DNA from: Candidatus Magasanikiibacteriota bacterium
GTDB lineage: Bacteria; Patescibacteriota; Patescibacteriia; Magasanikbacterales; 2-02-FULL-50-9b
Length of the DNA stretch: 64,000 bases
Direction of reading: 5' to 3'
Assembly (NCBI GenBank): GCA_903893485.1
Contig: CAITMK010000003.1
Location: forward strand, 9,922 to 73,921
Shown here: positions 15,325-64,000 of the stretch, piece after piece
How positions within the stretch are numbered: the stretch's first letter is position 1
How the letters are laid out: each line of letters starts with the position of its first letter
Notes under the pieces: model-generated
Told to the model about the DNA's origin: nothing
The model's database searches: none
The model's input: only the letters and a program-made list of their open reading frames with translations
Program-made: the position numbers and the translations under genes

Positions 15325-15342
15325 ACGCGACAAAGCAATCTT

Positions 15343-32197: not shown

Positions 32198-33883
32198 ATG
32201 CGATTGTTAATCGCGGTAGTTTCCCTCGTCGGCGCCGTGTGGTTGCCGATGGGATGTGGGAGCGATAGCAGTGCTATCACCCCCACCGATGCTGGTTCCG
32301 GAGATACCGGCAGCGACGTGGGCTTGCCCAATGCACCAACGCCGTGCGGTTCGGCCGCGGAGTGTCAGTACGAAGGAATGCAGAAAGAATGCCGCAAGGC
32401 TACCTGCGACCTCACGGCTGGTCACTGCGTGGTGAATCAAGCGGACGACGGCGACCAATGCATGGCCGGCAATGCCTGCTACGACAAAGGGACCTGCACC
32501 GCGGGCCAATGCGTCGTCGGGAAGGCCGTGCTGTGCGATGACGGAATCGCGTGCACCATCGACAGCTGCGACATCACGACCGGTTGCCTGCACAAGCCCC
32601 TCCAAGAGGGCGCGGACTGCGACGACGGCAACGTGTGTACGGTTGGCGATCAATGCACTAAGTTCGGCCTTTGCGCGGGCACCAAGCAAACCTGCGACGA
32701 CGGCGAGATCTGCACCAACGACTCGTGCAACCCGGTCAGCGGCGCGTGCGAAAACACGCCAACCAATGGCCCATGTGACGATGGCAAGGTCTGCACCAAC
32801 GACTCGTGTGTTGGTGGCAAATGCCTCGGCGTCGAAATCAAATGCGACGACGGCAACTTCTGCACCATCGACAAATGCGTCGAAGCCTTTGGCGGCTGTG
32901 TCGGCACCAACTCTTCCGGCGGACCGTGCAATGACGGCGACGGATGCACGGTGGGCGACACGTGCGACAGCGGTATCTGCAAATCGGGTACACCCCAAGT
33001 TTGTAACGACGGCAACGTCTGCACAGCGGAAAAGTGTTCATCGCCGAGCGGCACCTGTGTGTTCACCAAGTCCACCGAGACCCAGTGCAACGACGGTAAT
33101 CTATGCACGGAAAATGACCTGTGCGACACCGTGGCGCCGTGGGTGTGCAAAGGCGGCAAGCCGCTCGTGTGTGACGACGGTAACGTCTGCACCTCCGACA
33201 GCTGCACGGGCAATGGCGGCTGCGCATTTACGCCGAACAACGGCACGTGCGACGACAACAACTCGTGCACGGTGGGCGACACGTGCGTGGCCAAAGAGTG
33301 CCAGCCGAGCAACTTGCAGAAGTGCGACGACAACAACCCGTGCACCACGGACTCGTGTTCGCCAATCACGGGCTGCATCTTCGACGCCAATTCCATCAGC
33401 TGCACGGATGGCAACAGCTGCACGCTGGATGACAAGTGCGCGAACAAATCGTGCGTGGGCGTGGGTGTGGTCTGCAACGACAACAACCCGTGCACCACGG
33501 ACTGGTGTTCGCCGGACCTGGGTTGCCAGGCCGACAAGCTGTCCGTCAACGCAACGTGCAACGATGGCAACGGCTGCACGGGCCCGGACCTGTGCGATGG
33601 CGCTGGCAAATGCAGCGGCAAGACAATTTCGAATTGCGACGACGGCAATTCGTGCACGGACGACTCGTGCAATCCGACCAATGGTTCGTGCGTGAACAAA
33701 GCCAAGCTTGACGGCTCGGCCTGCACGGACAACAACGCGTGCAGCTCCGGCGACGCGTGCAAAGGTGGCATTTGTGCAGCCGTTGCCGTGGACTTGTGCA
33801 ACGACAACGTGACCTGCACCGTGGACATTTGCAATCCGGCCAACGGCGCGTGCTCCCACACGCTCGACCCGAACTGCAAGTAA
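32198..33883 (+). CDS. cysteine-rich tandem-repeat lipoprotein (about 13 ~38-aa CDDGNxCTxDxC...GC repeats)
   Basis: Strong SD (AAAGGAG) 7 nt before the ATG, signal peptide ending ...WLPMGCGS, periodic Cys spacing, about 62% GC. Many alternative-frame ORFs on both strands are artefacts of GC and repeat structure. Confidence 0.8.
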   Translation: MRLLIAVVSLVGAVWLPMGCGSDSSAITPTDAGSGDTGSDVGLPNAPTPCGSAAECQYEGMQKECRKATCDLTAGHCVVNQADDGDQCMAGNACYDKGTCTAGQCVVGKAVLCDDGIACTIDSCDITTGCLHKPLQEGADCDDGNVCTVGDQCTKFGLCAGTKQTCDDGEICTNDSCNPVSGACENTPTNGPCDDGKVCTNDSCVGGKCLGVEIKCDDGNFCTIDKCVEAFGGCVGTNSSGGPCNDGDGCTVGDTCDSGICKSGTPQVCNDGNVCTAEKCSSPSGTCVFTKSTETQCNDGNLCTENDLCDTVAPWVCKGGKPLVCDDGNVCTSDSCTGNGGCAFTPNNGTCDDNNSCTVGDTCVAKECQPSNLQKCDDNNPCTTDSCSPITGCIFDANSISCTDGNSCTLDDKCANKSCVGVGVVCNDNNPCTTDWCSPDLGCQADKLSVNATCNDGNGCTGPDLCDGAGKCSGKTISNCDDGNSCTDDSCNPTNGSCVNKAKLDGSACTDNNACSSGDACKGGICAAVAVDLCNDNVTCTVDICNPANGACSHTLDPNCK

Positions 33884-34025: not shown

Positions 34026-35264
34026 ATGAAGTTCCTTGTTCCGGCTATCTTTGCCCTCCTTTTAGTGGGGGCAACGGGCTGCGGAGATACCGCCGCCCCA
34101 CACGCCGATGACGCGTCAGCTGACGCGAGCGGCGATGCAAACAAAGACGCCACGCTCGGCGATGCCTCGGACTTTGCTCCGGACACGCCAAACGCAAGCG
34201 ACAGCGTCGACATCGCAAATCAAGTCACGCCAGGCGCCAAGAACTGGCCTTGCAGTGTGAACAGTGATTGCGACTCCGGCTACTGCGCGGAATCGCAGAA
34301 CGGCAAGCTGTGCGCGGAGGCGTGCGTTGGAGACTGCTCGTTCGGGTTTGCTTGTCAGACCGTTTCCAATGTCAGCGGCGACATCACGCAGTTCTGCGTC
34401 TCCAAGTTCACGTTCCTGTGCAATCCGTGCGAACACAACACGGAGTGCAACAGCAACTCGAGCTCAAGCAACCGCTGCTTGGACAAAGGCCCTGAAGGAA
34501 TGTTCTGCGGCGTCTCATGCGAAAGCACCAAAGACTGCCCCGCGGGATACGCTTGCAACCAGTTCTCGGATGATACCGGGACGTTCCTGCAGTGCGTACC
34601 CAAGGGTGGCCAAACGTGCGAATGCAATCCGCGCGCCATGGAACTGAAGCCGCAGACCACGTGCTACGAGGCGGCGTCGCCAAGCACGTGCAAAGGCACG
34701 CGTCAGTGTGAAGCCGCGGGCCTTTCGGCCTGCGACATCAAAAAGTCGCCGGAGATCTGCGACGATAAGGACAACGATTGCAACGGTCTGACCGATGAAG
34801 GGCTCTGCGACGATGGCAATCCCTGCACCGCTGACAGCTGCAACTCGGACGGCTCCTGCAAACACGATCAGCTGCAGGGCACGCCCTGTGATGACGGCAG
34901 CGTTTGCACGACCAGCGACAAGTGCGCGGCAGGTTTCTGCGTTTCGGGCGCCACGCTGCTCTGCGACGACAACAATCTGTGCACGGACAACCTGTGTGAC
35001 CCGGTAAATGCTTGCATGTACCCGGCGAACAAAGCTCCGTGCAACGATGGCAATCAGTGCACCTTGGTGGACATGTGCAGCGAAAAAAAGTGCCTGGGAT
35101 CTGTGCCGCCGAATTGCGACGACAAGAATCCGTGTACCACCGACTTCTGCGATCCGACGCTCGGCTGCGTCCATCAGGCTGATACCAAAGTGGACGGTTC
35201 GCCCTGCGCTTCTGCCCCCGGCAGCATCGGCCAGTGCGTGAATGGCAAGTGTGCCCAAACCTAG
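34026..35264 (+). CDS. cysteine-rich lipoprotein with a MopE-like DxDNDCxGxxDEG motif and C-terminal CDDGNxCTxDxC repeats
   Basis: Signal peptide with LVGATGC lipobox; CDDKDNDCNGLTDEG motif; five or more C-terminal Cys repeats like those of 32198..33883; 62% GC. Confidence 0.8.
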   Translation: MKFLVPAIFALLLVGATGCGDTAAPHADDASADASGDANKDATLGDASDFAPDTPNASDSVDIANQVTPGAKNWPCSVNSDCDSGYCAESQNGKLCAEACVGDCSFGFACQTVSNVSGDITQFCVSKFTFLCNPCEHNTECNSNSSSSNRCLDKGPEGMFCGVSCESTKDCPAGYACNQFSDDTGTFLQCVPKGGQTCECNPRAMELKPQTTCYEAASPSTCKGTRQCEAAGLSACDIKKSPEICDDKDNDCNGLTDEGLCDDGNPCTADSCNSDGSCKHDQLQGTPCDDGSVCTTSDKCAAGFCVSGATLLCDDNNLCTDNLCDPVNACMYPANKAPCNDGNQCTLVDMCSEKKCLGSVPPNCDDKNPCTTDFCDPTLGCVHQADTKVDGSPCASAPGSIGQCVNGKCAQT

Positions 35265-47596: not shown

Positions 47597-50116
47597 ATGT
47601 CGACTCATCCGTTTGCGCAAAAAACCACCCAGCATTTTAAAAATGTGCTGGTACAATCATTTCATCAAGCGGCACTGACCGGCACCGGATCGGTTACGTC
47701 GCTCCATTTGTTATTTTCACTTTTGGGTGAGGTCGGCTCGATTGGCCAAGAAATTTTGCATCGCGCTGGCGCCACCCGCGAAATGCTTGCGCCTTTTTTT
47801 GGTGAAATCGAAGGCACGCGTTTTGTACACCAGCAAGGACTTTCCCCTGCTGCCACGCGTATTTTGGAACGCGCAATTTTGGTTGCTGCCAAAAATGGTC
47901 ACACATATATCGGCACCGAACATTTACTTGCCGGGCTTTTGGAATCGTCACCTGCCGAATTAAATTTTTTATTTGAAATTTCAAAAGTTAAACGCGCCAC
48001 CGTTGAACAGCAACTCGAAATCGCATTAAAAAGCGCGGGCAAATTACCAGAATTATTGCACGACTTTAAATCAAAACAATCCACTGCCAAACAAAACGCA
48101 AAACAAAAAACGCCGGCGCTTGAATTTTTTGCAACAGAATTGACCACGCAAAAAGTTGCCGCAAAATTAGACCCGGTGATTGGTCGCGATGAAGAAATTG
48201 AACGCTTAATTCATGTGCTCTGCCGTCGCACCAAAAACAATCCGTTGCTTTTGGGCGATCCGGGCGTTGGTAAAACCGCAATTGTCGAAGGCTTGGCAAA
48301 ACGCATTGTTGATGGCGCGGTTCCTGCAGCGCTTGCCGATAAACGTATTTTTTCCGTTGATTTAGGTTTGGTTATTGCTGGCACCATGTATCGCGGTGAA
48401 TTCGAAGGCCGCATCAAACAACTCATCGACGAGGTAAAACAGCATCCTGAAATTATTTTGTTCATCGATGAAGTACATTCTATTGTTGGTGCAGGTTCAT
48501 CGAATGGCACACTCGACGCAGCGAATTTATTAAAACCTGCATTAGCGCGCGGCGAGTTGCACGTAATTGGCGCAACCACGTTTGAAGAATTCAAAAAACA
48601 CATCGAACACGACGCGGCACTTGAACGCCGTTTTCAAACCGTGATGATCAAAGAACCAACTGCCGACGAAACGATTGAAATTTTGAAACATATTAAATCG
48701 CGTTACGAATCGTTTCATCATGTTGCAATTAGCGATGAAGCAATTGTTGCGGCCACCAAACTATCGCACAAATATTTCCCCGAAAAACATTATCCGGATA
48801 AAGCGATTGACTTGATCGACGAAGCCATGAGCGCGCAAAAAGTTGAGCGCACTCATTTGGAAACGCACACGCGCCGCGCAGAACTTCGCAAAAAAATTAT
48901 TCAACTTGGTCGCAAAAAACAAGAAGCGGTTATCGAAGAAAATTTTGATCGCGCCACTGCGCTGCAAGCCGAAGAATCCGCCGCGCAACTTGAACTTTCG
49001 GCGCTCGAAGCCGTCACTGAGTCCGGCGCGCCACTTGGCACGGTTACCGCACGCGATATGTACGCCGTTTTGGCACGCATCACCCGCCGCCCACTGGCCG
49101 AAATGTCGAGTGGTATTAATGCTCGCGGCATTTCTGCACTGCTCACGCAAAAAGTTTTTGGGCAATCAGAAGCGCTTACCAAAATTGCTGCAACACTTGC
49201 AAAAGCAGAATTAGGTTTGGGCAGCGACACGCGCCCACTTGCTTCATTTCTTTTTGTTGGCCCAACCGGCACAGGCAAATCCGAAGTTGCAAAATTAATT
49301 GCCGCTGGCGCCTATGGCGATCCAAAAGCCGTGATCCATCTTTCCATGACGGAATTTTCGGAAGGATTTAGCGTTTCCAAACTTCTCGGCTCGCCCGCTG
49401 GTTACGTTGGCCACAAAGAATCAACCACACTCGTTGATCGACTTCGCCGCCAACCACTTTCCGTAATCGTGTTCGACGAAATCGACAAAGCGCATGGCGA
49501 TGTACTCAATATTTTATTGCAAATGCTCGAAGAAGGCCGACTCACGGATTCATCGGGCAAAGAAGCGAACGTCAAACAGTGCATTATTATTTTGACACAC
49601 CAAATTCCCTACGAAGAAGCCGCGGGATCGCAGTTTGGTTTTGGTGCAAGCACAATTGGTGCAAATCGCGGCCAGGCGCGCACGGCAAAAGAAATCGAAC
49701 AGTCGCTTCGCACCATCATGAAACCAGAACTGTTAAATCGTATCGATTCAATTTGCGTGTTTCAACCGCTTACCGAAGATGCACTCGCACAAATCGCAGG
49801 CGCTGAACTTGCAGATTTAGCAACGCGCGTTTCAAAACGCGGTATTGCGCTTACGTGGGATGATGGAGCGCCCGCAGCAATTGCAAAAACAATTTCAAGT
49901 GCGGCTGATGGCGCCCGCAGCGTTCGACACGCAACGTACACACAAATTGAACAACCGCTCATCGATGCATATTTGGCGCAAGAAGAAATGTCCGCATACC
50001 ATATTGAATCGGAAGATGGTATAATCCGTGGTATTCCAACCTATGGACGAGACCAGCAATTCATCACAACTCTCAAGAAATCCAGGGCTCGAGTACGCAC
50101 AAGCGCAAAGGCTTAA
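47597..50116 (+). CDS. clpC: Clp/Hsp100 AAA+ chaperone, ClpC-like (two Clp-N repeats, two AAA modules, short UVR-containing linker)
   Basis: GDPGVGKTA and GPTGTGKSE Walker A motifs and a sensor-2 region; 839 aa fits ClpC rather than ClpB. Confidence 0.85.
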
Positions 50117-50411
50117 TGAAGCGCGCGCGGCGAATAATCTTCAAGCTGCTTCTGAGAAAAACACTGCTAGCAACGCGAACACCGTCTACGATGAGCCTAG
50201 TGTTGATGAATACCCTGATGATGAGCTCGAGGACGACGCTTCGGATGATAGCAATGAAGAAACAGGAGGCGAACAAACTTCCGACGATTCAGGCCCATCG
50301 AATGCAGACAAGGCCAAGGAGTTGGCAAAAGCTGCGCGCTTTGGCATCTGGGGAGCTGTTCTGTGGTTTTTAAAAAAATTGTGGGGACTCTTCACCGCAC
50401 AAAATTCATAA
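50028..50411 (+). CDS. possible small acidic protein overlapping the clpC 3' end
   Basis: 127-aa ORF with a D/E-rich centre and C-terminal amphipathic/hydrophobic tail. The only in-frame ATGs lie 73-90 nt inside clpC. May be non-coding. Confidence 0.25.
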   Translation: MVFQPMDETSNSSQLSRNPGLEYAQAQRLNEARAANNLQAASEKNTASNANTVYDEPSVDEYPDDELEDDASDDSNEETGGEQTSDDSGPSNADKAKELAKAARFGIWGAVLWFLKKLWGLFTAQNS

Positions 50412-50423
50412 TTGTTCTTTTAT

Positions 50424-51680
50424 ATGGAAACTGAATTCGACAAAAAAAAGGTTCTTGCCCTTGTTGGCATTGTTGCGGCCACCGGGCTCATTGGCTACAT
50501 CATTTACGTAGTTTTTTTTAAATCCGCAGCGCCAGCCGCGGTCACTACTCCAACCGAACAAACCGCTGGCGGAGGTCTTTCACCTTCCGGACAAGCAACC
50601 CCAGGCACCAATGTGGTAACGCCGCAAGCACCAGAGCAACAAGTTTTTTCTTCCGCATCACAAATTAGCCCACTCGCTACTGCTGGGTCAAAAATTGTAA
50701 GCGTCACACCAATTGTCACACTCCCAACCGTTGGCGTAACTGCCGCGGCAAATGGGAATGATTTACAATTTTACAACTCAGTTGATGGGAAATTTTACAA
50801 AATTAATTCTGACGGCACCCCAACCACGTTAACTCCAGATTCATTTCCAAACGTAAAAACCGTTGAATGGTCCCCAAATAAATCGCTCGCCGCAATGAGT
50901 TTTCCAGATGGCAGCAAAATTGTATACGATTTTAAAGCGCAGAAACAATACACGCTTCCAAAACATTGGGACTCAATCACCTTTTCGCCAGACAGTACAC
51001 AACTGTACGGAAAAACCCAAAGTCCAGATCCAGAATTGCGGTTTTTATTTAGTTCAAACGTCGATGGCACGGGCGCAACTCCAATTGAACCACTTGGCAA
51101 TAATGGCGATAAAGTTATCATTGCACCATCACCAAACAATCAGGTCATTGCATTTTCAAATACCGCGGACCCAATTGGGGGCGGCGCCGAACGCATGGGC
51201 ATGCTTCTGATTGGCAAAAATCACGAAAACTTTAAACAAATGACCATTGAAGGTCTTGGTTTTCAACCAAAGTGGTCACCAAACGGTGATAAGGTTTTAT
51301 ACAGCGCATACAATCGCAGTACCGGTTTAGCACCAATTTTATGGGTTGATGGTGGCACTGACAGCACTGTTGGCCAACTCAAAAACGCTTTTCCAATTAA
51401 AACTTGGGCAAGTAAATGTACGTTTGCATCAAACGACGAAGCAATCTGCGCGGTACCAAATCCAGATACGCTTCTTCCTGGCATCGGTTTTGCACCACAA
51501 CTCGCAACCAATACCGACGATACTATTTACAAAATCAATCTTAAAAGCGGTTTACAAACAATCGTTGGAAAACCAGATGGCAACCGCACGATTTCAGAAG
51601 TTACCGCATCAGAAGATGGCCAGTACCTGTACATGAAAGACCAAAATTCGGGAGAGCTGCTGAAAATGCGTCTTAAATAA
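50424..51680 (+). CDS. membrane-anchored WD40-like beta-propeller protein (TolB/PD40-like repeats)
   Basis: ATG at 50424 (METEFDKK); the track form starts at a TTG at 50412. N-terminal TM, Thr/Pro-rich linker, recurring WSPN/FSPD..G...Y repeats. Confidence 0.6.
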   Translation: METEFDKKKVLALVGIVAATGLIGYIIYVVFFKSAAPAAVTTPTEQTAGGGLSPSGQATPGTNVVTPQAPEQQVFSSASQISPLATAGSKIVSVTPIVTLPTVGVTAAANGNDLQFYNSVDGKFYKINSDGTPTTLTPDSFPNVKTVEWSPNKSLAAMSFPDGSKIVYDFKAQKQYTLPKHWDSITFSPDSTQLYGKTQSPDPELRFLFSSNVDGTGATPIEPLGNNGDKVIIAPSPNNQVIAFSNTADPIGGGAERMGMLLIGKNHENFKQMTIEGLGFQPKWSPNGDKVLYSAYNRSTGLAPILWVDGGTDSTVGQLKNAFPIKTWASKCTFASNDEAICAVPNPDTLLPGIGFAPQLATNTDDTIYKINLKSGLQTIVGKPDGNRTISEVTASEDGQYLYMKDQNSGELLKMRLK

Positions 51681-51681
51681 T

Positions 51682-52353
51682 ATGCGAAACGAGACCGCAA
51701 TTGCCGCGGGGCTTATCTGTTGCAGTATCATAATTGGCGGCATTGCCATTATTAAGTTACAAAATTCTGATTCAGCCACGCCTCAGCAATTAACTAAATT
51801 GACCACTCCACCAATACGAATTACTGACCCTACACAAGGGCCAGAAAAGGCGCCGGTCACAATTGTGGTGTATGCTGATTTTGCATGCGATAGCTGCGGC
51901 GGGCTTGCCACCGAACTTTCGAATCTACGCCATGAATCAGAAATTGGCAATAAGTTTCGGGTGATCTGGAAAGATTTTCCGATACACCAACAAACACTTC
52001 CAAAAAGTTTTGATCTACATATTGCAGCTCGATGCGCTGCAACCATGGGTAAATTTTGGGAATTTCATGACGCGGTATTTGCCCATGCAAATCAACTTAT
52101 TTTTGGAACCGATATTTTATCCGCGGTGGAACAAGAATCTGGCGTTTCTCCATCGCGCATTGCCGATTGCATGAAGTCATCCGCAATTACGGATTTAATT
52201 AATCAAAATATGGCTGATGGGCGAGCGCTTGGCATCACCGCACTCCCCACCTATTTTATCAATGGCAACCGCAACGAAGGTGTCCTCCCTTACAATCAAC
52301 TTCGTGGTATAATTCGGAGCGAAATCGCAACATATGATGCATCGCATCCGTAA
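51682..52353 (+). CDS. DsbA-family thiol:disulfide oxidoreductase (membrane-anchored)
   Basis: N-terminal TM and a thioredoxin fold with a CDSC CxxC; 1 nt after the upstream gene. Confidence 0.65.
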   Translation: MRNETAIAAGLICCSIIIGGIAIIKLQNSDSATPQQLTKLTTPPIRITDPTQGPEKAPVTIVVYADFACDSCGGLATELSNLRHESEIGNKFRVIWKDFPIHQQTLPKSFDLHIAARCAATMGKFWEFHDAVFAHANQLIFGTDILSAVEQESGVSPSRIADCMKSSAITDLINQNMADGRALGITALPTYFINGNRNEGVLPYNQLRGIIRSEIATYDASHP

Positions 52354-54676
52354 TTTTTTCATTGCAAGTTTTTTTGTAATCAGCACTTTTTTAGTGCCGG
52401 CTTCGGCGCACGCACTTGATAATTTTTTAGACTGCACCAACCTAACAAATAATTGCAACAACCGCAGCGGCTGCGTTCAAAATCATATTGGCACGAATCC
52501 TGATACGGGATATAGCACGGTCGTCAATAATGTTTTAACCAGTATGTGTATCCCCTACTACACATACGATCTTTGTGGTACCGATAGTTATTCGAAAGCT
52601 CATATTACGATGGGGACTGTTGATTCTGGAAATTGTCAACAAAAAGGCGAATATTGCGCACTCGTAAGTTCTACAAAATACAAGGATCATTTTGCTGCTT
52701 TTTGTGTAAATGATCAGATGATTCCAAAAGCACTAAATTCAAACAACATTTGTACAACATCAGCAAATTGTAATGTTAACCAGCAATGTGTTTTTGTATC
52801 AACGGTTAATCTCAGTACTGGCATTATTAACGGTAAGGACTCAAGTTTCTCATTCCAGAATGATTTGAACCCACTATTTACCGCTACTCGTTGCATGGAT
52901 ACCAATCTTTTGCCACCAGAACTTGTTGACCCAAAACTTGGTGGCACTTGTGGCACAAACTCAAGCTGCACTGATTCACAAATTTGTGTTCAAAATACAT
53001 TCGATCCAGAACACTATCCGCAAGTTTGTGTTGATAAAACAGCTGCCGCCATTACCACGAACTGCGACAAAGCTCACGTTGCAAGTCAATGCAACACCGG
53101 GACACAAACAAATCATGTTTGCATGCAAATTGTATCGGATCTAAAAAATCCATATCAATGTGTCGATGTAACCACGCTCCCCGGCGGCCCTACGGCACCA
53201 ACCGTAAAGGTCTGCGATACTGATGCTGATTGCAAAGGTATTGGATCTTCCGCAGATGGCACCGCAGGATATTGTTTATATAATCCCGCTACGAAAAAAA
53301 ATCAGTGCATGCCAAATTCGGTTGTGTACACCGATGCTGCGGCAACAGCCAGCTGTAAAATTCCAGGCACCAGCGGTTGTGAGGCTGGCGATCCAACTTC
53401 GATTTGCACCTATCGACCATCCGCAACATTGGCTTTCATGTGCATTAAAGGTAATTCGCTGGGAAGTGGCGCGGGCATGGCTGCATATGTTCCTCCACCA
53501 CAACTAGCTACTGCGCAAGATACTAACACCCGCCCCGCACCCGTACTCGAAATTAACATTCCTGATCTTTCGTTTACCGATAAGCTCGTTGGTCACGCCG
53601 CGCCCGGTGGACAAATTTTCGATGTGAATTATCTGGCAACATATATTAATGCCGTGTACAAATACGGTATCGGACTTTGTGTTTTAGTTGCCACGATCAT
53701 GCTCATGTATTCTGGTTTTCTATACATGACCGCTGGTGGAAATTCAAAGGCCGCAACCGAAGCAACTACTGGCGCCAAAAATGCAGTCGCAGGACTTATC
53801 ATTCTTTTTTGTGCGTACATTTTCTTATACACAATCAATCCCAACTTAACGCAGCTAAAATCAATTAGTATTTTTGCGCAACAAACGGATCCTTACGAGT
53901 TAAAGGACGATGGTGAATCCACACCAACCCTCACCGAAGGCCAAACAAATAGTATTACCACGCAAACAGGTCCCTTTACCCCAATCGATTCTAAAAGTCC
54001 GTTGATCGAACAGCTCATCGGCGCGCTACCCGATAGTATCGAGGCGTGCTCGCCTGCTGCGGCAGATTATGCCGCGACTAAATTAACTGCATTGGGCATT
54101 TGTGTCCGCGACAAAAACTGTGCAAATACCGCATCAGCGTTCATGAACTATATAAAATGCACAAAAGTTTTTGAAGGAAGTGCGCGTTATCTTCCTGCCG
54201 TGCTTAGTAAATCTGGATGGACAACAATATTGATTCAAAAAGGTCAAGAACAAAACTTACCGCTTGGTGTTCTTTGGATGAATGATGGTCACGTTGGAGT
54301 TTCGCTTGGCAATGGAAAAGGACAATTCGATTCCGGTAATGGGCAACATGCACTCAATGAAATAAATAAAATAACCGGTGGTAACTGTGCGAAATTGAAT
54401 CACAAAGTCGCCAACGTTGACGATTGTAATTCGTGCGCAAAAATCCAAGCAAAAAAACCAATCGCCGACGTGGATGTGCAATCGTGGTACAAAAATCCAA
54501 CCGTTACCCCTATTACCGAAAAATATTCATGGAAGCTCATCATGGTCCCTCCAAAATACGCTCAATCAACCGTGCCGCGTGGTCCTTGCAGCGTAGCGGG
54601 AATCAACATTAAAGATGGGGTTGAGTCCACACTCTGCAATGCGCTTACCAATACGTGGCCCCCAGCAAAATCTTAA
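52334..54676 (+). CDS. Cys-rich secreted protein with a conserved two-helix membrane hairpin and a C-terminal NlpC/P60- or CHAP-like papain-fold peptidoglycan hydrolase domain
   Basis: Signal peptide ...ASAHA; about 40 Cys in the ectodomain; hydrophobic pair IGLCVLVATIMLMYSGFLYM / AVAGLIILFCAYIFLY; C-terminal ...NC(x55)...LPLGVLWMNDGHVGVSLGNG (Cys...His about 55 aa apart). Confidence 0.7.
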   Translation: MMHRIRNFFIASFFVISTFLVPASAHALDNFLDCTNLTNNCNNRSGCVQNHIGTNPDTGYSTVVNNVLTSMCIPYYTYDLCGTDSYSKAHITMGTVDSGNCQQKGEYCALVSSTKYKDHFAAFCVNDQMIPKALNSNNICTTSANCNVNQQCVFVSTVNLSTGIINGKDSSFSFQNDLNPLFTATRCMDTNLLPPELVDPKLGGTCGTNSSCTDSQICVQNTFDPEHYPQVCVDKTAAAITTNCDKAHVASQCNTGTQTNHVCMQIVSDLKNPYQCVDVTTLPGGPTAPTVKVCDTDADCKGIGSSADGTAGYCLYNPATKKNQCMPNSVVYTDAAATASCKIPGTSGCEAGDPTSICTYRPSATLAFMCIKGNSLGSGAGMAAYVPPPQLATAQDTNTRPAPVLEINIPDLSFTDKLVGHAAPGGQIFDVNYLATYINAVYKYGIGLCVLVATIMLMYSGFLYMTAGGNSKAATEATTGAKNAVAGLIILFCAYIFLYTINPNLTQLKSISIFAQQTDPYELKDDGESTPTLTEGQTNSITTQTGPFTPIDSKSPLIEQLIGALPDSIEACSPAAADYAATKLTALGICVRDKNCANTASAFMNYIKCTKVFEGSARYLPAVLSKSGWTTILIQKGQEQNLPLGVLWMNDGHVGVSLGNGKGQFDSGNGQHALNEINKITGGNCAKLNHKVANVDDCNSCAKIQAKKPIADVDVQSWYKNPTVTPITEKYSWKLIMVPPKYAQSTVPRGPCSVAGINIKDGVESTLCNALTNTWPPAKS

Positions 54677-54678
54677 CT

Positions 54679-56850
54679 ATGAGATTTCGCTTTCGTCTTT
54701 ATCTCATTTCAAGTTTATTATTTTTGAGTGCCTTTGCCGCGCCATCTTCTGCGCATGCACTCGGCAATGATGTTCTTCAAAATTGCGCATCCGTAACCGG
54801 CTGTGATTCGAATTTAACCTGCGTCCAGAAAAATAATGTAAGCGGATTTAATATTCAACCGCTGGATAATATTTGCATGCCGGAGCCGGCTTACGCCAAT
54901 TGCGGTCTAAAAAATGAGGGCCTACAAATTAAAGGTAAATGCGAACTTGGGAGTTTTGAATGTGCCGTAATCAGCTCCCTCAAACGCACAAACGCGTACG
55001 TTGATTCATGTGTTTCAAAATCAAAATTGCCTCAGATGGGCGTTTTAGATCAAACCGATTGCTCTGATTCCACTGACTGTAATGTTGGAGAGCAGTGCGT
55101 TCTGGTTTCCCTGCCAAATGATACCGGGACCAATACCACGTTTGGCACCCACCGCTGTATTTCGATTTTAGATTTACCAACAAAAATTGTGGATGATGCC
55201 GGATCGTGTTTTGCAAAAAAGAAATGCGATCCCGGTCTTGTTTGTGTACGCCACATCGATGACAAGACCGTTGATAATCCGTTTGTCTGCCAAAAAAATA
55301 CCGACGTTAAGCCCGCGCCAACTTGCATCGATAAAACGACCATTGGCACAGATTGTGTTATTGATGGCACTCCAGGCACTTGCTTGGATATTTTTATTGG
55401 CACGTCAAAACCAGTTGTGCAATGTGTTCGTAAAGATACGCTTATCGGCGGCGTCAATGCGCCAAGTTCACAAGTTTGCACCAACGATAACGATTGCAGC
55501 TCCGTAACCGGATTTCCTTATTGCGTCACCAACCCAGCTACGGGGAAAAATCAATGTTTTGGCCAGGATCAAATTTATACTGCAATGACTAATCCTGCTG
55601 ATGCAAAATGTACTACCGGTTCTCCAAGCGCCTCGTGTGCATGTACCGCAAATAAAATAACTGGCTGCGCGGGTAATGCTGGCGGATCTGTCTGTTCAAC
55701 ACATTTGGGCGGCTCTGGTGGATTTATTTGTATCCATAATCAAGCGCTCAGTGCGGGTACAACAACCGTTGGATACACCCCTGCAGCCACGCCCCAAGAC
55801 AGTAATACTCGCCCCGCGCCAGTACTTGAAGTCGCAATTCCAACGGTAAATTTTTCAGATGCGCTTACCGGGACATCAACCACCGGTGGTCAAATTTTTA
55901 ATGTAGATTATTTAGCGACCTACATAAATGGTGCATATAAATATGGCATCGGTGTAGGAGTACTTTTTGCAACACTTTTGCTCATGTACGCGGGCTTTTC
56001 TTACATGACCGCTTTTGGAAATGCAAAACAAGTTAGCACCGCAACCGATAATGCAAGAAATGCAATCATGGGGCTTGCACTATTATTTTCTGCATACACG
56101 ATTCTATATATAATCGATCCAAATATAACGCAGCTCAAATCAATACAAATTTTCTCACCATCAACCGAAGTATTTGATATTGGTACTGCAAATTTTGTCG
56201 ATGAAAATTCTACACCACAATCAACTCCGCCATCAGTATCTTCGAGCCCAAGTGCATTTGATGATATTTTTAAAAAATATGCACAATGTTCCGGTATCAA
56301 CTGGGAACTTATGAAGGCAATTGCGAAACATGAATCTGGCCTCAACCCAAATATTCCAAATGGAAGCGGAAGCAGCTGTATCGGACTTTTTCAAGCGAAA
56401 GCTGGAAAAGATAATGCATTCTGCAAAGCAGTTTTAAAACCCGTACACCTCGATGTTAAATGCGATGTACCTGGCCTTACTGATCCAGATCTTAATACCG
56501 CATTTGCAACAGAAATTTTTAAAGTATCAGTTCCCGCTATAAATAAAAGGTGTCCGGATGCGACATTCGGTGATAAAGTTTTTTTGTTATATTTTGCAAA
56601 TGGTAACGGGCCAAGTGGCATGAACACTGCAATTACAGCCTACCACTGTAATCCCGTGAGCAACCCATCAACATGGCCTGATCCAGATACCCGGTGGCCT
56701 GCTGGAACAGCTCACGGACTCGGTGGCGTAAAAGTTTATCATGGTGCAACAAAAGCCTACAATTATGATATTGTTAATGTGATTTCTGCTCTAGGCGTAA
56801 CACAATTCAGCGGTCCAATGAATGCATCTGTCTGCCCAACGCACCACTAG
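54679..56850 (+). CDS. Cys-rich secreted protein, paralog of 52334..54676, with the same membrane hairpin and a C-terminal SLT lytic transglycosylase domain
   Basis: ATG at 54679 gives signal peptide MRFRFRLYLISSLLFLSAFAAPSSAHA; the track form starts at a GTG at 54655. SLT motif AIAKHESGLNP...GSSCIGLFQ; the hairpin region is about 75% identical to the paralog. Confidence 0.75.
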   Translation: MRFRFRLYLISSLLFLSAFAAPSSAHALGNDVLQNCASVTGCDSNLTCVQKNNVSGFNIQPLDNICMPEPAYANCGLKNEGLQIKGKCELGSFECAVISSLKRTNAYVDSCVSKSKLPQMGVLDQTDCSDSTDCNVGEQCVLVSLPNDTGTNTTFGTHRCISILDLPTKIVDDAGSCFAKKKCDPGLVCVRHIDDKTVDNPFVCQKNTDVKPAPTCIDKTTIGTDCVIDGTPGTCLDIFIGTSKPVVQCVRKDTLIGGVNAPSSQVCTNDNDCSSVTGFPYCVTNPATGKNQCFGQDQIYTAMTNPADAKCTTGSPSASCACTANKITGCAGNAGGSVCSTHLGGSGGFICIHNQALSAGTTTVGYTPAATPQDSNTRPAPVLEVAIPTVNFSDALTGTSTTGGQIFNVDYLATYINGAYKYGIGVGVLFATLLLMYAGFSYMTAFGNAKQVSTATDNARNAIMGLALLFSAYTILYIIDPNITQLKSIQIFSPSTEVFDIGTANFVDENSTPQSTPPSVSSSPSAFDDIFKKYAQCSGINWELMKAIAKHESGLNPNIPNGSGSSCIGLFQAKAGKDNAFCKAVLKPVHLDVKCDVPGLTDPDLNTAFATEIFKVSVPAINKRCPDATFGDKVFLLYFANGNGPSGMNTAITAYHCNPVSNPSTWPDPDTRWPAGTAHGLGGVKVYHGATKAYNYDIVNVISALGVTQFSGPMNASVCPTHH

Positions 56851-56889
56851 CTTGCTGAAAATTCAAACCTGCGCTAAGGTGATACCACT

Positions 56890-58224
56890 ATGTTTGTTTG
56901 TACGGAATGCAAATCTCGCTCGCAAAAGTGGTCTGGAAAATGTTTGAATTGCAGCGCGTGGAGTAGTTTGGTCGAGGCGCCGGACGAAAAAAAGAAAAAA
57001 GGCTTGGGTGGTGGCGGCAGTGCCGCGCCACTCGTTGCGCTTCAAGATATTTCTGCGTCGGCGCCAGCCCACGCACGTTTGTCCACTAAAATTGCATCAG
57101 TCGATGAAGTTTTAGGCGGTGGCATTGTGCCCGGATCATTGGTTTTGCTTGCGGGCGAGCCAGGCATTGGTAAATCAACAATTGTCATGCAAATCGCAAT
57201 CGCGGCGCGCGGCGCACTCTATGTTTCCGGCGAAGAATCCGCGGATCAAGTTTCCCTGCGCATGAAACGCTTGGCCGGCCCAGGCGGTAAAGCTGATATC
57301 AAATTTATTGGCACCACGGATTTTGAAGAAGTCTATAACGCCATCAAAACGCATCGGCCAACGCTTGCGATTGTGGATTCGGTGCAAACCATGCGCCATC
57401 CAGATGTACCAAGCGAGCCGGGCAACGTGGCGCAAATCCGCGCGGTAGCAAATGCACTCATGGATTTGGCAAATCAAACTGGCGTGCCAATTATTTTAAT
57501 CGGCCACGTTACCAAAGACGGTTCGGTGGCGGGCCCAAAAACTTTGGAGCATTTGGTGGATGTGGTTATCGCGCTCGAAGGTGAACGATCCGATCGTTTG
57601 CGCTTTATGCGTTGTTTTAAAAATCGTTTTGGTCCAACCGATGAGGTTGCGGTTTTGGAGATGCTAGAAAATGGGTTGCAGCCCGTTGCAGATCCGTCTG
57701 GATTGTTACTGCAGGAACGTTCCCTGCCAGTTCCTGGCACCGTGGTGACGTGCCTCATGGATGGTAACCGCCCGATCTTGGTTGAAATTCAAGCGCTTAC
57801 CACGCGCACCACGTTTGGTTTTCCGCAGCGCCGCGCCGTTGGTGTGGACACGGGCCGTTTGCAGATTTTATTGGCCGTGCTTGGCCGCCGCATGGGTTTG
57901 CCGGTTGATCAGTTCGACGTGTTTGTAAATGTTGTTGGCGGATTATCTGCCGATGAGCCCGCCGCAGATTTAGCAATTTGCATGGCCATTGCATCTGCGC
58001 TTGCGGACAAAACAATTCCACAAACCGTTATTGCGTTTGGCGAAGTTGGCCTATCCGGCGAAATCCGCCGCGTGAAAAATATGGATAAGCGGCTAAAAGA
58101 AGCGGAACGCCAAGGATTTAAATTTGCGCTCGTACCAGCTGCCAAAAATTTTCCAACAACAAAAACTTTAAAACTAACGCCGATTGCTGATATTAAATCG
58201 GTCCTCGAAAAAATTGAAAAATAA
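56890..58224 (+). CDS. radA: DNA repair protein RadA/Sms
   Basis: C4 zinc finger CTECKS...CLNC, Walker A GEPGIGKST, KNRFG motif, and a Lon-like C-terminal domain. Confidence 0.95.
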   Translation: MFVCTECKSRSQKWSGKCLNCSAWSSLVEAPDEKKKKGLGGGGSAAPLVALQDISASAPAHARLSTKIASVDEVLGGGIVPGSLVLLAGEPGIGKSTIVMQIAIAARGALYVSGEESADQVSLRMKRLAGPGGKADIKFIGTTDFEEVYNAIKTHRPTLAIVDSVQTMRHPDVPSEPGNVAQIRAVANALMDLANQTGVPIILIGHVTKDGSVAGPKTLEHLVDVVIALEGERSDRLRFMRCFKNRFGPTDEVAVLEMLENGLQPVADPSGLLLQERSLPVPGTVVTCLMDGNRPILVEIQALTTRTTFGFPQRRAVGVDTGRLQILLAVLGRRMGLPVDQFDVFVNVVGGLSADEPAADLAICMAIASALADKTIPQTVIAFGEVGLSGEIRRVKNMDKRLKEAERQGFKFALVPAAKNFPTTKTLKLTPIADIKSVLEKIEK

Positions 58225-61696: not shown

Positions 61697-62215
61697 CTAA
61701 AACTTCAAGACCTTCTCCAAAACATCGCCCAAAGGCTCTTCTACTTGGGTTTTGTCTTCCCGGACGAACCGCAAAAGCGTCTCGCGGACCTCATTCGGGT
61801 CTTCGTCTTCCAGCGGAATAGAAAGCCGTGGCGACGTGGCACTTTTGAACGTGATATATAAACTTTTGACCACACCTGGTTCAAAAACAATGAAAAAACG
61901 GTCGACTTCGAGGTATGGGTACAAAAATCCGCGCCACACCACGCCTTTGTCGGTAATGCCAAACTGCGTCAGGCCCGGCTCTTTGGTCTCGTGGAACAAA
62001 AAAATGACCGCGATTAAAATTAAAATAAACGCAAATAAATAATTATCGGTGTAGAGCGCGTACCCAATCGTTGCAAGTAAAAAAATGCTGGCCGTAATGT
62101 ACCACCGGGGTGTGTGCGGATATTTGGTATATTCCGGGATATCCCACACGTGATAAATCGTGTTTCCAAATTGATTGACAAGGGGCTCTGGCATATGATG
62201 ACAAAAGTATAACAT
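61697..62215 (-). CDS. hypothetical membrane protein
   Basis: ATG at 62215 (MLYFCHHMPEP...) gives 172 aa with two TMs. The track's longer form runs antisense through tRNA-Ser and was trimmed. Confidence 0.55.
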   Translation of the reverse strand: MLYFCHHMPEPLVNQFGNTIYHVWDIPEYTKYPHTPRWYITASIFLLATIGYALYTDNYLFAFILILIAVIFLFHETKEPGLTQFGITDKGVVWRGFLYPYLEVDRFFIVFEPGVVKSLYITFKSATSPRLSIPLEDEDPNEVRETLLRFVREDKTQVEEPLGDVLEKVLKF

Positions 62216-62268
62216 GTATTGACTCGAGGCGCCAAATCCGCTACAATTGAATCGTTCTAAATTTACGT

Positions 62269-62360
62269 GGAGAGGTGGCCGAGTTGGTCGAAGGCACCAC
62301 ACTGCTAACGTGGCAGGGCTTAAACCGCCCTCCAGGGTTCGAATCCCTGCCTCTCCGCCA
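62269..62360 (+). tRNA. tRNA-Ser (anticodon GCU), class II with long variable arm, CCA encoded
   Basis: Acceptor GGAGAGG/CCTCTCC, 3-bp D stem, anticodon loop CTGCTAA, variable arm GGGC-TTAAACC-GCCC, T arm CAGGG-TTCGAAT-CCCTG, discriminator G. Confidence 0.85.
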
Positions 62361-62400
62361 GGACATCCCACTCACGTGGGATTTTTTGTTTGACGCCTTT

Positions 62401-63060
62401 TTAAACAGCCGCCACAACGACGCCGCAAATTTTTTCGACACCAACATGGTGAAGAGCTTCAATCGCAGCAGTCATTGTACTTCCTGTGGTGAGCACATCA
62501 TCGACAATGCAATATTGTACAGCAGGATCGATTTTTTCTGTTGCAATAAACGCACCCTGCATGGCACCCAAACGTTCCTGACGTGATCGATGTGCTTGCT
62601 GCCCGCGTCCACGGGCGCGCACCAAAATATTTTTAATTTCAAAATTTTCTGCACCGCCGGCCCGCAATATTCCCTGCGCCAAAATTTCCGATTGATTAAA
62701 TCCGCGCAGCGCTAACCGCTTTTCTAAGAGTGGAATCGGTACTAATATTATTTTTTCTTTTTGCGGCGGTAAACAATCATGCATCCATTGCCCCATCACC
62801 TCACCGGCGCGCCAAATCATTTTATATTTAAGCGTGTGAATTGCGCTGCGCACCGATGCAACTTCAAAACTGGTGGCCGAAAAAACCTGCGCACCAGCAA
62901 TTTCTCGAGTACAAATTCCGGCATTCAGACGCATAATCTCGCATTTTGTACACCAGATTACACAACCAGAATCAGAGCTGTCCACAAACAGCCCACAACC
63001 CATGCACGGCATGGGAAATAAAAAATCTAATACCACCCGCCAAATCCCCCCTTCCACCAT
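62401..63060 (-). CDS. comFC: ComF-family competence protein (phosphoribosyltransferase domain)
   Basis: N-terminal CxxC...CxxC zinc finger (CMGC...CTKC); C-terminal PRTase motif IVDDVLTTGSTM. Confidence 0.8.
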   Translation of the reverse strand: MVEGGIWRVVLDFLFPMPCMGCGLFVDSSDSGCVIWCTKCEIMRLNAGICTREIAGAQVFSATSFEVASVRSAIHTLKYKMIWRAGEVMGQWMHDCLPPQKEKIILVPIPLLEKRLALRGFNQSEILAQGILRAGGAENFEIKNILVRARGRGQQAHRSRQERLGAMQGAFIATEKIDPAVQYCIVDDVLTTGSTMTAAIEALHHVGVEKICGVVVAAV

Positions 63061-63063
63061 ATG

Positions 63064-63654
63064 TTATGGTTTGTACTCTTTCCAAGTTACGGCGTCAACT
63101 AACCAAATCGAATTTACCTTTACGGCTGCAACGGTCGCGATTTCATAGGTGGTATGATCGCCCGCGGTGCCGCCATGATACAAACGCTGCGCGCCAACTT
63201 CCAAAGTTGCGGTGGTTGCGGTTTGTGCCGTAATTTTTATTGAGATTGCATGTGTGGTAACGCCACTAAATACCGCAGCAACGGTTGGCGCCTGTGTTAA
63301 ACGAGCCTGCGCCCATGCTAACAAATGGGGGCCCATGCGACTGAGTAATTGTTTCAAATTCGCATTTTCTGCATCCGTTGAATAGGTTCCAAAGCGCGCA
63401 ACAAAATCACCGGTGGTGCGCTGAAGCATTGCGTCTGATGAATCCTTTGGGATTGAGCCTGCTGGAATTGGTGTGGCTGGTGTAACTGGTCCAATGTTTG
63501 GCGTTGTTGTTGCAGTTTGTGTTGGCGCAACTGGCGATGGAGCCGCAGGTGCAGCTGCGCGATTTTTAAGTGCAATAATCGCCGCAATAATTAGCAGCAC
63601 CGCTGCCAAAATCATGACGCCCATTCTTAATTTTTTCTGTGTTTCTGCTTCCAT
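63064..63654 (-). CDS. hypothetical membrane-anchored protein (N-terminal TM, Pro/Ala/Thr linker, ~120-aa C-terminal domain)
   Basis: 196 aa, ATG start; sits between the VirB4-like fragment and comFC. Confidence 0.55.
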   Translation of the reverse strand: MEAETQKKLRMGVMILAAVLLIIAAIIALKNRAAAPAAPSPVAPTQTATTTPNIGPVTPATPIPAGSIPKDSSDAMLQRTTGDFVARFGTYSTDAENANLKQLLSRMGPHLLAWAQARLTQAPTVAAVFSGVTTHAISIKITAQTATTATLEVGAQRLYHGGTAGDHTTYEIATVAAVKVNSIWLVDAVTWKEYKP

Positions 63655-63659
63655 AGTTT

Positions 63660-64000
63660 TTATGTTTCAGGACCAAACTCAACCGGCACCACTGTTTTAA
63701 GCGCAGCCTCAGCATCGGTTGATTGCGATACGCCCGCCGCAGCCGCTGCGTCTTGATCTTCGCGCAATTTACGTTTTTCCTCTTCCATTTTAATCATCTG
63801 CTGTGGATTGGTAGTAACAATTTGATCTTCGTTATATGACGCAACAATTTTAATTGCCGCGTGTTTGTTGCCCGCAAAGAAAATACCTTCACCAACCGCG
63901 CTTTCCAAAAGCAAAAACTTTTCGCCCTCGGTGAGCATAAAGGTTTTTACCAAGTGATCGATCGCCGCCGGCGACTGTTTAAGCAAAAGCTGCATTGATG
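63660..64000 (-). CDS. C-terminal ~113 aa of a protein continuing beyond the window; resembles the C-terminus of VirB4/TrbE-type conjugative ATPases
   Basis: ...FMLTEGEKFLLLESAVGEGIFFAGNKHAAIKIVASYNEDQIVTTNPQQM... followed by an acidic/Ala-rich tail. No in-frame stop before the window edge. The family call rests on recollection of the VirB4 C-terminal pattern, not a search. Confidence 0.4.
   Translation of the reverse strand, partial: SMQLLLKQSPAAIDHLVKTFMLTEGEKFLLLESAVGEGIFFAGNKHAAIKIVASYNEDQIVTTNPQQMIKMEEEKRKLREDQDAAAAAGVSQSTDAEAALKTVVPVEFGPET

Follow-up and report, generated by a model that had tools for sequence, protein, structure and literature searches.

The closest described relatives of the proteins considered here are small VirB2-like pilins of Patescibacteria. 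These canonical pilins match the Pfam family PF18895 (T4SS_pilin), are 100-220 amino acids (aa) in length, and consist of little beyond a two-helix hairpin that directly follows the signal peptide. In the one species of Patescibacteria tested, the type IV secretion system (T4SS) is essential for epibiotic growth, and a 2025 survey (PMC12102498) reports that most genomes with VirB2-like pilins are without a recognizable VirB1. Here we describe two adjacent genes, A and B, carried by a 64,000-nucleotide stretch from a Candidatus Magasanikiibacteriota bacterium (GenBank assembly GCA_903893485.1, contig CAITMK010000003.1, positions 9,922 to 73,921; hereafter called the window). Both encode large proteins built around a conserved membrane block, and we find that this block is a VirB2-like 'T4SS_pilin' module (PF18895), a domain that is abundant in Patescibacteria.

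Proteins A and B share family and phylum with the known PF18895 pilins, such as those of the Southlakia epibionticum ML1 array and the arrays compiled in PMC12102498. They also share a Sec signal peptide, two helices, a loop of the form ...TAGGN..K...AK..., the ending ...YTINPNL, and an arrangement as tandem paralogs. For A and B, a VirB4/PrgI T4SS begins about 6.8 kb downstream, past intervening housekeeping genes. In contrast to canonical pilins, A and B are 723-780 aa long, the hairpin being preceded by ~370 aa and followed by 220-265 aa, and their genes sit outside the core T4SS operon, in a module with genes for TolB-like and DsbA proteins. Their hairpin is also much better conserved (43-62% identity) than that of the Patescibacteria pilin arrays, where the mean is 25% (PMC12102498).

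The PF18895 family itself is already known, and matches to it are given in Table S3 of PMC12102498 without protein lengths, but the large class of fusions seems to have gone unremarked. The full-text literature that was searched, outside of which most subscription journals lie, holds no description of 700- to 800-aa pilin-hydrolase fusions with swappable enzymes. Likewise, we did not find tandem pilin repeats or the conserved TolB-like/DsbA module described there.

The conserved block is a T4SS_pilin module

Gene A (52334..54676, + strand) is an open reading frame (ORF) of 780 codons, for which the public gene call begins one codon later (52337) and yields 779 aa. Gene B (54679..56850, + strand) encodes 723 aa from the ATG used in the public gene call, or 731 aa if translation begins at the GTG at 54655. 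The two are tandem paralogs whose pairwise E value is 1e-90. This value, together with the recurrence of the block in thousands of other proteins, indicates that their likeness is not due to chance. A protein identical to A (P0002) is present in public contigs of metagenome-assembled genomes (MAGs).

An initial annotation of the window had placed a two-helix membrane hairpin at 53540-53880, with a second copy at about 55800-56150, and these positions agree closely with the boundaries that we obtain. In A, the block spans 53519..53878 (+ strand; aa 396-515), as defined by pairwise alignment, hydropathy, and homolog consensus. In B, it spans 55798..56157 (+ strand; aa 382-501 in the 731-aa numbering), as defined by pairwise alignment, hydropathy, and the Pfam match. 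The block of A opens with the motif RPAPVLEINIPDLSF. Helix 1 comes next and is joined by the loop TAGGNSK...AKN to helix 2, after which the motif INPNLTQLKSISIF completes the block; the block consensus was drawn from sets of 22 and 118 homologs. Hydropathy locates the two hydrophobic helices of A at aa 444-466 and 483-505 (53663-53731 and 53780-53848, + strand) and those of B at aa 430-452 and 469-490 (55942-56010 and 56059-56124, + strand). An AlphaFold model of the block, built from a homolog alignment, places helices at block residues 44-78 and 83-113 with predicted local distance difference test (pLDDT) values of 88-96 and a turn of four residues between them, whereas the ~43 conserved residues that precede helix 1 are modeled with low confidence. 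Thus, the two hydrophobic helices and the short loop anticipated from the sequence are recovered both by hydropathy and as a helix-turn-helix in the model.

The assignment to PF18895 is above the family cutoff of 26.6 bits in both proteins: A matches at aa 434-500 (53633..53833, + strand; E = 3e-08, 34.0 bits) and B at 55906-56115 (27.9 bits). The block of A, when searched in isolation, scores 37.8 bits against this gathering threshold. Matches to the same family were obtained for 20 relatives in a set of 22 and for 111 in a set of 118. Searching with a block profile also retrieved 82 small proteins of 84-217 aa, most of which are annotated as PF18895. Several of these additionally match PF04956 (TrbC/VirB2), and some have been named 'pilin' by NCBI. 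Their named sources are Colwellbacteria, Sungbacteria, Paceibacteria, the Parcubacteria group, and unclassified Patescibacteria. When the small pilin P0001 and several others are aligned, a ...LEI.FP-like segment is found directly after the signal peptide, and this same motif forms the start of the block in A and B. The position of the motif in the small pilins indicates that the ectodomain was inserted between the signal peptide and what is normally the N terminus of the pilin.

The relationship to VirB2/TrbC-type pilins that had been proposed for the block is therefore upheld by PF18895 and by those relatives that match PF04956. The latter link is indirect, as neither A, nor B, nor the block itself matches PF04956 in Pfam at E <= 1. 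The accompanying suggestion of a resemblance to class II holins did not hold up. No holin family is matched in Pfam or PHROGs at E <= 1 (in place of one, PHROGs returned only three families of unknown function, at E values of 0.03-0.08), and the topology implied for the block is opposite to that of these holins.

Conservation of the block

The blocks of A and B align without gaps over 120 aa, of which 75 (62.5%) are identical and 79% are positives. The identity is lower than the ~75% first estimated. When identity between A and B is followed in a sliding window, it is 55-70% within the block, 20-30% in the ectodomain, and at background level past the block. The contrast with the flanks results in part from a domain swap, as the C-terminal domains are unrelated to each other rather than diverged copies. 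At the DNA level, the two blocks are 63.6% identical with a longest identical run of 12 nucleotides, and only 35 of the 75 codons for identical residues are the same. These values rule out recent gene conversion as the source of the similarity. Rather, the divergence of synonymous sites indicates that the likeness of the blocks is old and has been held by selection.

Among 22 close homologs, the block is free of gaps and retains 43-62% identity to A, compared with identities near 30% for the ectodomain. Eight residues are invariant in this set (P402, Y436, Y441, G460, G468, G486, L487 and P502 in the numbering of A), and the edges of the block carry the conserved extramembrane motifs RPAP.LEI.IP.L.F and INPNL..LK. 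Orthologs provide a more direct comparison with the C-terminal domains. For A and its ortholog P0089, the block is 51% identical versus 50% for the C-terminal domain, and for B and its ortholog P0093 the block is 52% identical versus 56% for the catalytic domain. For a mere anchor, it would be unusual to match an enzyme domain in slowness of evolution, as this hairpin does.

From this survey of homologs, the claim that the block is far more conserved than its flanks is correct with respect to the ectodomain (~30%) but not with respect to the C-terminal domains of orthologs (50-56%), which the block merely equals. The further proposal of a role for the block beyond passive anchoring is supported by its gap-free alignment, its 43-62% identity in close homologs against ~30% for the ectodomain, and its invariant proline, glycine, and tyrosine residues.

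Architecture of A and B

Both proteins begin with Sec-type signal peptides that end in ...SAHA. That of A, MMHRIRNFFIASFFVISTFLVPASAHA (52334..52414, + strand), is hydrophobic at aa 5-29 and carries an A-H-A motif at which cleavage is predicted. A cysteine-rich region of ~370 aa follows in each protein, with 28 cysteines in A (52415..53518, + strand) and 30 in B. By position, the cysteines of A can be grouped into seven four-cysteine modules, four of which open with C-x5-8-C-x5-9-C. The ectodomain of A is 31% identical to that of B and ~30% identical to those of other homologs, with conserved cysteine columns and many gaps. Following the T4SS_pilin hairpin, a linker rich in threonine, serine, and proline separates the block from the C-terminal domain. 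The order of domains in A is therefore signal peptide, ectodomain of seven four-cysteine modules, T4SS_pilin hairpin, linker, and a C-terminal domain without a family match. The order in B is signal peptide, cysteine-rich ectodomain, T4SS_pilin hairpin, and SLT lytic transglycosylase.

The SLT domain of B (56266..56547, + strand; aa 538-631) matches PF01464 with an E value of 1.7e-07 and 31.2 bits against a cutoff of 21.3. As read from the sequence, it retains the catalytic-type motifs ...AKHESGLNP... and GLFQ, and it also matches transglycosylase and endolysin families in PHROGs. For the C-terminal domain of A (53966..54673, + strand; aa ~545-780, or ~235 aa with 11 cysteines), searches of Pfam, NCBIfam, PHROGs, and PDB sequences all came back empty. 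A jackhmmer search of ~280 pilin-domain proteins and other ORFs from related loci yielded P0089 as the sole relative of the domain, and hhalign comparisons with 21 other clusters of C-terminal domains were negative. A single-sequence AlphaFold model is unusable (pLDDT 33). The two relatives have in common the motifs NCANTASAFMNYIKC and GHVGVSLG, in the forms NCANTASAF... and GH(V/T)G(V/I)SLG. On the basis of these conserved motifs, we would guess that this domain may be a papain-like Cys/His hydrolase. The two proteins had initially been regarded as a pair of peptidoglycan hydrolase fusions. This description holds securely for B alone, by virtue of its SLT domain, the C-terminal domain of A being without any family match.

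A large class of pilin-hydrolase fusions

A word-indexed homolog search with the block alone gave one match, and an exhaustive search was needed to recover its relatives. Using the block as a phmmer query, we obtained 13,235 cluster representatives at E <= 1e-3, of which 1,679 reach E <= 1e-10. The best 150 relatives are biased toward the A/B subfamily, because the query included the motifs that flank the hairpin. Within this set, the pilin domain is followed by over 100 aa in 140 proteins and preceded by over 100 aa in 52. The fusion arrangement is common in sequence databases.

The identity of the C-terminal domain is highly variable. Among the 140 closest relatives, matches were found to SLT (17), Peptidase_C39_2 (14), VanY (12), Amidase_2 (7), Glucosaminidase (5), NlpC/P60 (4), Peptidase_C70 (4), M23 (2), SLT_3 (2), and 3D (2), where the models of the M15 family match overlapping sets of proteins. 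Clustering of the C-terminal regions of 187 fusions produced at least 47 sequence clusters. Moreover, the enzyme class present at the locus varies between genomes, and the same class never occurs twice in one locus.

The pilin domain itself can be repeated. Nineteen of the best 150 relatives carry two to six tandem pilin domains, with examples including P0154, P0085, P0087, P0192, P0092, and P0097, and some of these proteins end in an SLT domain. P0154 comprises six hairpins (12 predicted transmembrane helices) and essentially nothing else, and P0085 combines four pilin domains with an SLT domain.

Genomic neighborhood

The genes located immediately upstream of A encode two proteins that recur with the fusions. 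The first gene of the conserved module (50412..51680, + strand) encodes a membrane-anchored TolB-like beta-propeller of 422 aa with weak PD40 and TolB matches. It is followed by a gene for a DsbA-like thioredoxin (51682..52353, + strand; Pfam Thioredoxin_4 and DSBA) that overlaps the start of A. The presence of DsbA directly upstream fits the 28-30 exported cysteines of A and B. From 50412 to 58224, successive genes overlap or are separated by 1-40 nucleotides, and this tight packing makes an operon probable.

A scan of GTDB genomes identified 25 loci in MAGs of Magasanikbacteria, Uhrbacteria, and other Patescibacteria. Nearly all of these carry the order clpC, TolB-like, DsbA, one to four fusion genes, radA, and recG. 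The TolB-like gene adjoins DsbA and the fusions in 23 of the 25 genome loci, and the same holds for several metagenome loci. In the window, clpC and radA flank the TolB-like/DsbA/fusion module (47597-58224), and most of the 25 genomes have their fusions positioned after dsbA and before radA. In Bacillus, clpC and radA are adjacent in the ctsR-clpC-radA operon.

A T4SS locus begins about 7 kb downstream of the fusions, where the 3′ end of a gene for a VirB4-like ATPase (63660..64000, - strand) runs past the end of the window. Its product is 72% identical to the C terminus of the ATPase of locus L003, which matches P-loop_TraG, AAA_10, and DUF87. Contigs of the same organism extend past the window and encode VirB4 (654 aa), a TraC-like protein, PrgI (VirB3-like), and a further gene. 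Directly beside VirB4 is a conserved gene for a 196-aa protein with a single transmembrane helix (63064..63654, - strand) and no Pfam match, whose position fits that of a candidate VirB8-like component. It adjoins a gene for a ComF-like phosphoribosyltransferase (62401-63060, - strand). The survey noted above found T4SS loci beside comF, recG, and radA in class ABY1 (PMC12102498).

Small pilins are not apparent near these genes. The 64-kb window contains no pilin-like ORF besides A and B, none of the 25 genome loci has a small pilin ORF less than 10 kb from its fusions, and none occurs near virB4 in 50 metagenome loci, the longer ones of a set of 80, with the far side of the T4SS of the present genome lying outside this search.

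Elsewhere among the T4SS loci, conserved proteins of ~1000 aa and ~590 aa without Pfam matches are encoded upstream of PrgI, TraC-like, and VirB4 (locus L030, 4081-8841; also L031, L034, L037, and L043). These are candidates for T4SS channel components, perhaps VirB6- or TrsD-like.

Possible functions of the fusion proteins

We favor the hypothesis, with a probability of about one half, that the pilin-type hairpin tethers the ectodomain and an exchangeable hydrolase outside the cell and docks at the site where a T4SS handles its pilin, so that the function of VirB1 is provided by fusion. In this scheme, a Sec signal peptide would export the cysteine-rich ectodomain, and DsbA, whose gene is probably co-transcribed, is likely to oxidize it. 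Helix 1 would then cross inward, the short lysine-bearing loop would remain in the cytoplasm, and helix 2 would cross outward to leave the C-terminal wall hydrolase outside. The proposed topology with both termini outside (N-out/C-out) follows from the signal peptide and the exported, disulfide-rich domain that precede the hairpin, the two lysines of the loop, and the wall hydrolase that follows the hairpin. VirB2 has this same topology, with its loop in the cytoplasm. The hairpin would probably dock A and B at the pilin-handling site of the neighboring T4SS (VirB4, PrgI/VirB3), thereby confining wall cleavage to those sites at which the machine or pilus has to pass through peptidoglycan. The outcome would be a built-in VirB1 function with an exchangeable set of enzymes, acting on a wall that could be the cell's own or that of a host. 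A role beyond anchoring is suggested because the hairpin matches the catalytic domains in conservation, and docking at the T4SS pilin site is suggested because the hairpin has retained the constraints of the pilin family.

Several observations weigh against this hypothesis. Housekeeping genes (radA, an EamA transporter, recG, and comF) lie between the fusions and virB4. Of 80 metagenomic VirB4 loci, the 50 longer ones include only five with fusions within 10 kb, and all five have TolB-like, DsbA, or radA close by. The tightest conserved neighbors of the fusions are the TolB-like and DsbA genes, which are not known T4SS parts, and the gene link between fusions and T4SS is looser than that between fusions and these two partners. 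In addition, the C-terminal domain of A lacks a recognizable hydrolase family. No solved VirB2 or TraA pilin came up when PDB sequences were searched with a profile, and Foldseek comparison of the model with the PDB gave no pilin in the top 50 (the best E value was 1.0, to generic helical hairpins), although neither search is informative because a helical hairpin is not a discriminating fold. Finally, no PF18895 protein of Patescibacteria has been shown to form a pilus or to bind a T4SS, such that the family name is itself inferential, and reviews grant Patescibacteria only the 'potential' to elaborate pili.

Other functions for the fusions can be envisioned that use the same domains differently. 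The pilin module might polymerize into a T4SS pilus, alone or as a minor subunit among small pilins, and carry the cysteine-rich domain (as an adhesin) and the hydrolase, which would serve to bind and breach the host wall during epibiosis. Such a role, which we consider unlikely, is in keeping with the pilin-family membership of the block and with a fast-evolving ectodomain on a constant scaffold whose polymorphic C-terminal enzymes recall polymorphic effectors. The relatives with two to six tandem pilin domains likewise resemble fused neighboring protomers, and pilins of the F and VirB2 types expose their termini at the surface of the pilus, where passengers could be displayed. Furthermore, Southlakia cannot grow as an epibiont without its T4SS and the accompanying pilin array, and effector delivery has been speculated for it. 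However, a tightly packed homopolymer seems to leave no steric room for passengers of ~370 aa and ~260 aa on each subunit, no small major pilin is encoded near the fusion loci, the hairpin is 43-62% identical rather than as variable as the array pilins (mean 25%; PMC12102498), and no pilus has been demonstrated. It seems quite improbable that the same idea extends to a T4SS-dependent filament or membrane platform, assembled from these modules with or without other pilins and bearing disulfide-knotted adhesins and mixed hydrolases, by which ultrasmall epibionts would bind and drill the host wall and in which tandem pilins would be linked protomers. The lack of a T4SS partner in the conserved module instead invites the view that the hairpin is a pilin-derived, two-helix membrane anchor for the cell's own wall-remodeling or division autolysins, with no tie to a T4SS. 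The module indeed occupies a vertically inherited site between clpC and radA across nearly all 25 loci, its constant partners are TolB-like and DsbA proteins rather than T4SS genes, its enzyme classes are those of ordinary autolysins, and many VirB4 loci have no fusions nearby. We nevertheless find this explanation doubtful, given that passive anchors rarely hold invariant proline, glycine, and tyrosine residues and extramembrane motifs at the level of catalytic-domain conservation, that the domain family is found beside virB4 in 1,135 assemblies, and that virB4 is about 7 kb from the fusions here.

The boundaries of the block raise the prospect that A and B are polyprotein precursors, which would be cleaved there to free a small pilin together with a cysteine-rich protein and a hydrolase, both soluble. 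In the RP4 and Ti systems, TrbC/VirB2 pilins undergo processing at each end, the N-terminal motif of the block would be the mature N terminus of P0001 and several other small pilins, conserved motifs mark both boundaries, and the tandem multi-pilin proteins could themselves be precursors. Yet the conserved module includes no protease gene, and the N-terminal boundary is not preceded by the hydrophobic segment that signal peptidase would need, making this route very unlikely. The chance seems vanishingly small that a holin-like hairpin permeabilizes the membrane to release or activate the attached hydrolase. The general hydropathy pattern, with two transmembrane helices beside a muralytic domain, is all that recommends a holin, and we rejected this assignment because neither Pfam nor PHROGs yields a holin family, the block is confidently assigned to T4SS_pilin, and a signal peptide with extracytoplasmic domains on both sides implies an N-out/C-out arrangement, which is opposite to the topology of class II holins. 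The gene context is also chromosomal and housekeeping rather than that of a lysis cassette.

The combination of a VirB2-type module with interchangeable wall hydrolases is a concrete candidate for the wall-opening function that is missing from most genomes with VirB2-like pilins. More generally, the fusions constitute a 'Rosetta-stone' link between pilin and wall-hydrolase activities. The use of the pilin hairpin as a carrier and in tandem repeats bears on whether such 'pilins' form pili at all, and two further partners, both unstudied, come with the conserved TolB-like/DsbA/fusion module. Should the enzymes prove to act on the host wall, they would provide a direct handle on how Patescibacteria breach their hosts.

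Other features of the window

Several other genes of the window are of note in their own right. A protein with VanW and PG_binding_4 domains (24471-26300, - strand) is another product associated with the cell wall. Adjacent genes at 4788-9992 and 10051-15333 (both - strand) encode giant surface paralogs of 1734 and 1760 aa with CarboxypepD_reg, Big_13, and SdrD_B-type domains. Between ~32000 and 36000, the GC content rises to 0.55-0.58 from ~0.45 elsewhere, and the genes at 32198-33883 and 34026-35264 encode cysteine-rich Dicty_CTDC repeats. This stretch may be foreign DNA or a compositionally odd locus for repeat proteins. Lastly, a 224-aa ORF (61697-62371, - strand) overlaps a tRNA-Ser(GCT) gene at 62269-62360 (+ strand). 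Its long start is probably spurious, because the public gene call is a shorter membrane protein of 172 aa.

Comparison with known systems

Beyond the PF18895 pilins, four groups of proteins can be compared with A and B. Class II holins are small N-in/C-in proteins of lysis cassettes, whereas A and B are 723-780 aa long with a hairpin flanked by exported domains and a predicted N-out/C-out topology. The TrbC/VirB2 pilins (PF04956) share with A and B a signal peptide, a two-helix hairpin, and a basic connecting loop, but A and B are ten times larger.

In polymorphic effectors and toxins, a constant delivery region is joined to an exchangeable C-terminal enzyme. The fusions echo this design with a constant scaffold of ectodomain and hairpin and at least 47 C-terminal clusters among 187 proteins. 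Unlike polymorphic effectors, they have no evident immunity genes, and in place of nucleases or deaminases they carry ordinary wall hydrolases, whose delivery to another cell would be hypothetical.

The VirB1-type hydrolases of Gram-positive T4SSs (PrgK of pCF10, TraG of pIP501, CD419, and TrsG profiles) place a wall hydrolase at a monoderm membrane, as appears to be the case here. A muralytic domain with catalytic residues, typical of such enzymes, is found in B (SLT) and not in A. VirB1-type hydrolases serve a T4SS, and A and B are encoded near a T4SS that is MPF-FATA-like. As represented in the literature covered by PMC12102498, VirB1-type enzymes carry SLT and CHAP domains behind an ordinary N-terminal transmembrane segment. 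A and B differ in that they use a pilin hairpin as the anchor, with one variable enzyme domain per protein and a large cysteine-rich ectodomain.

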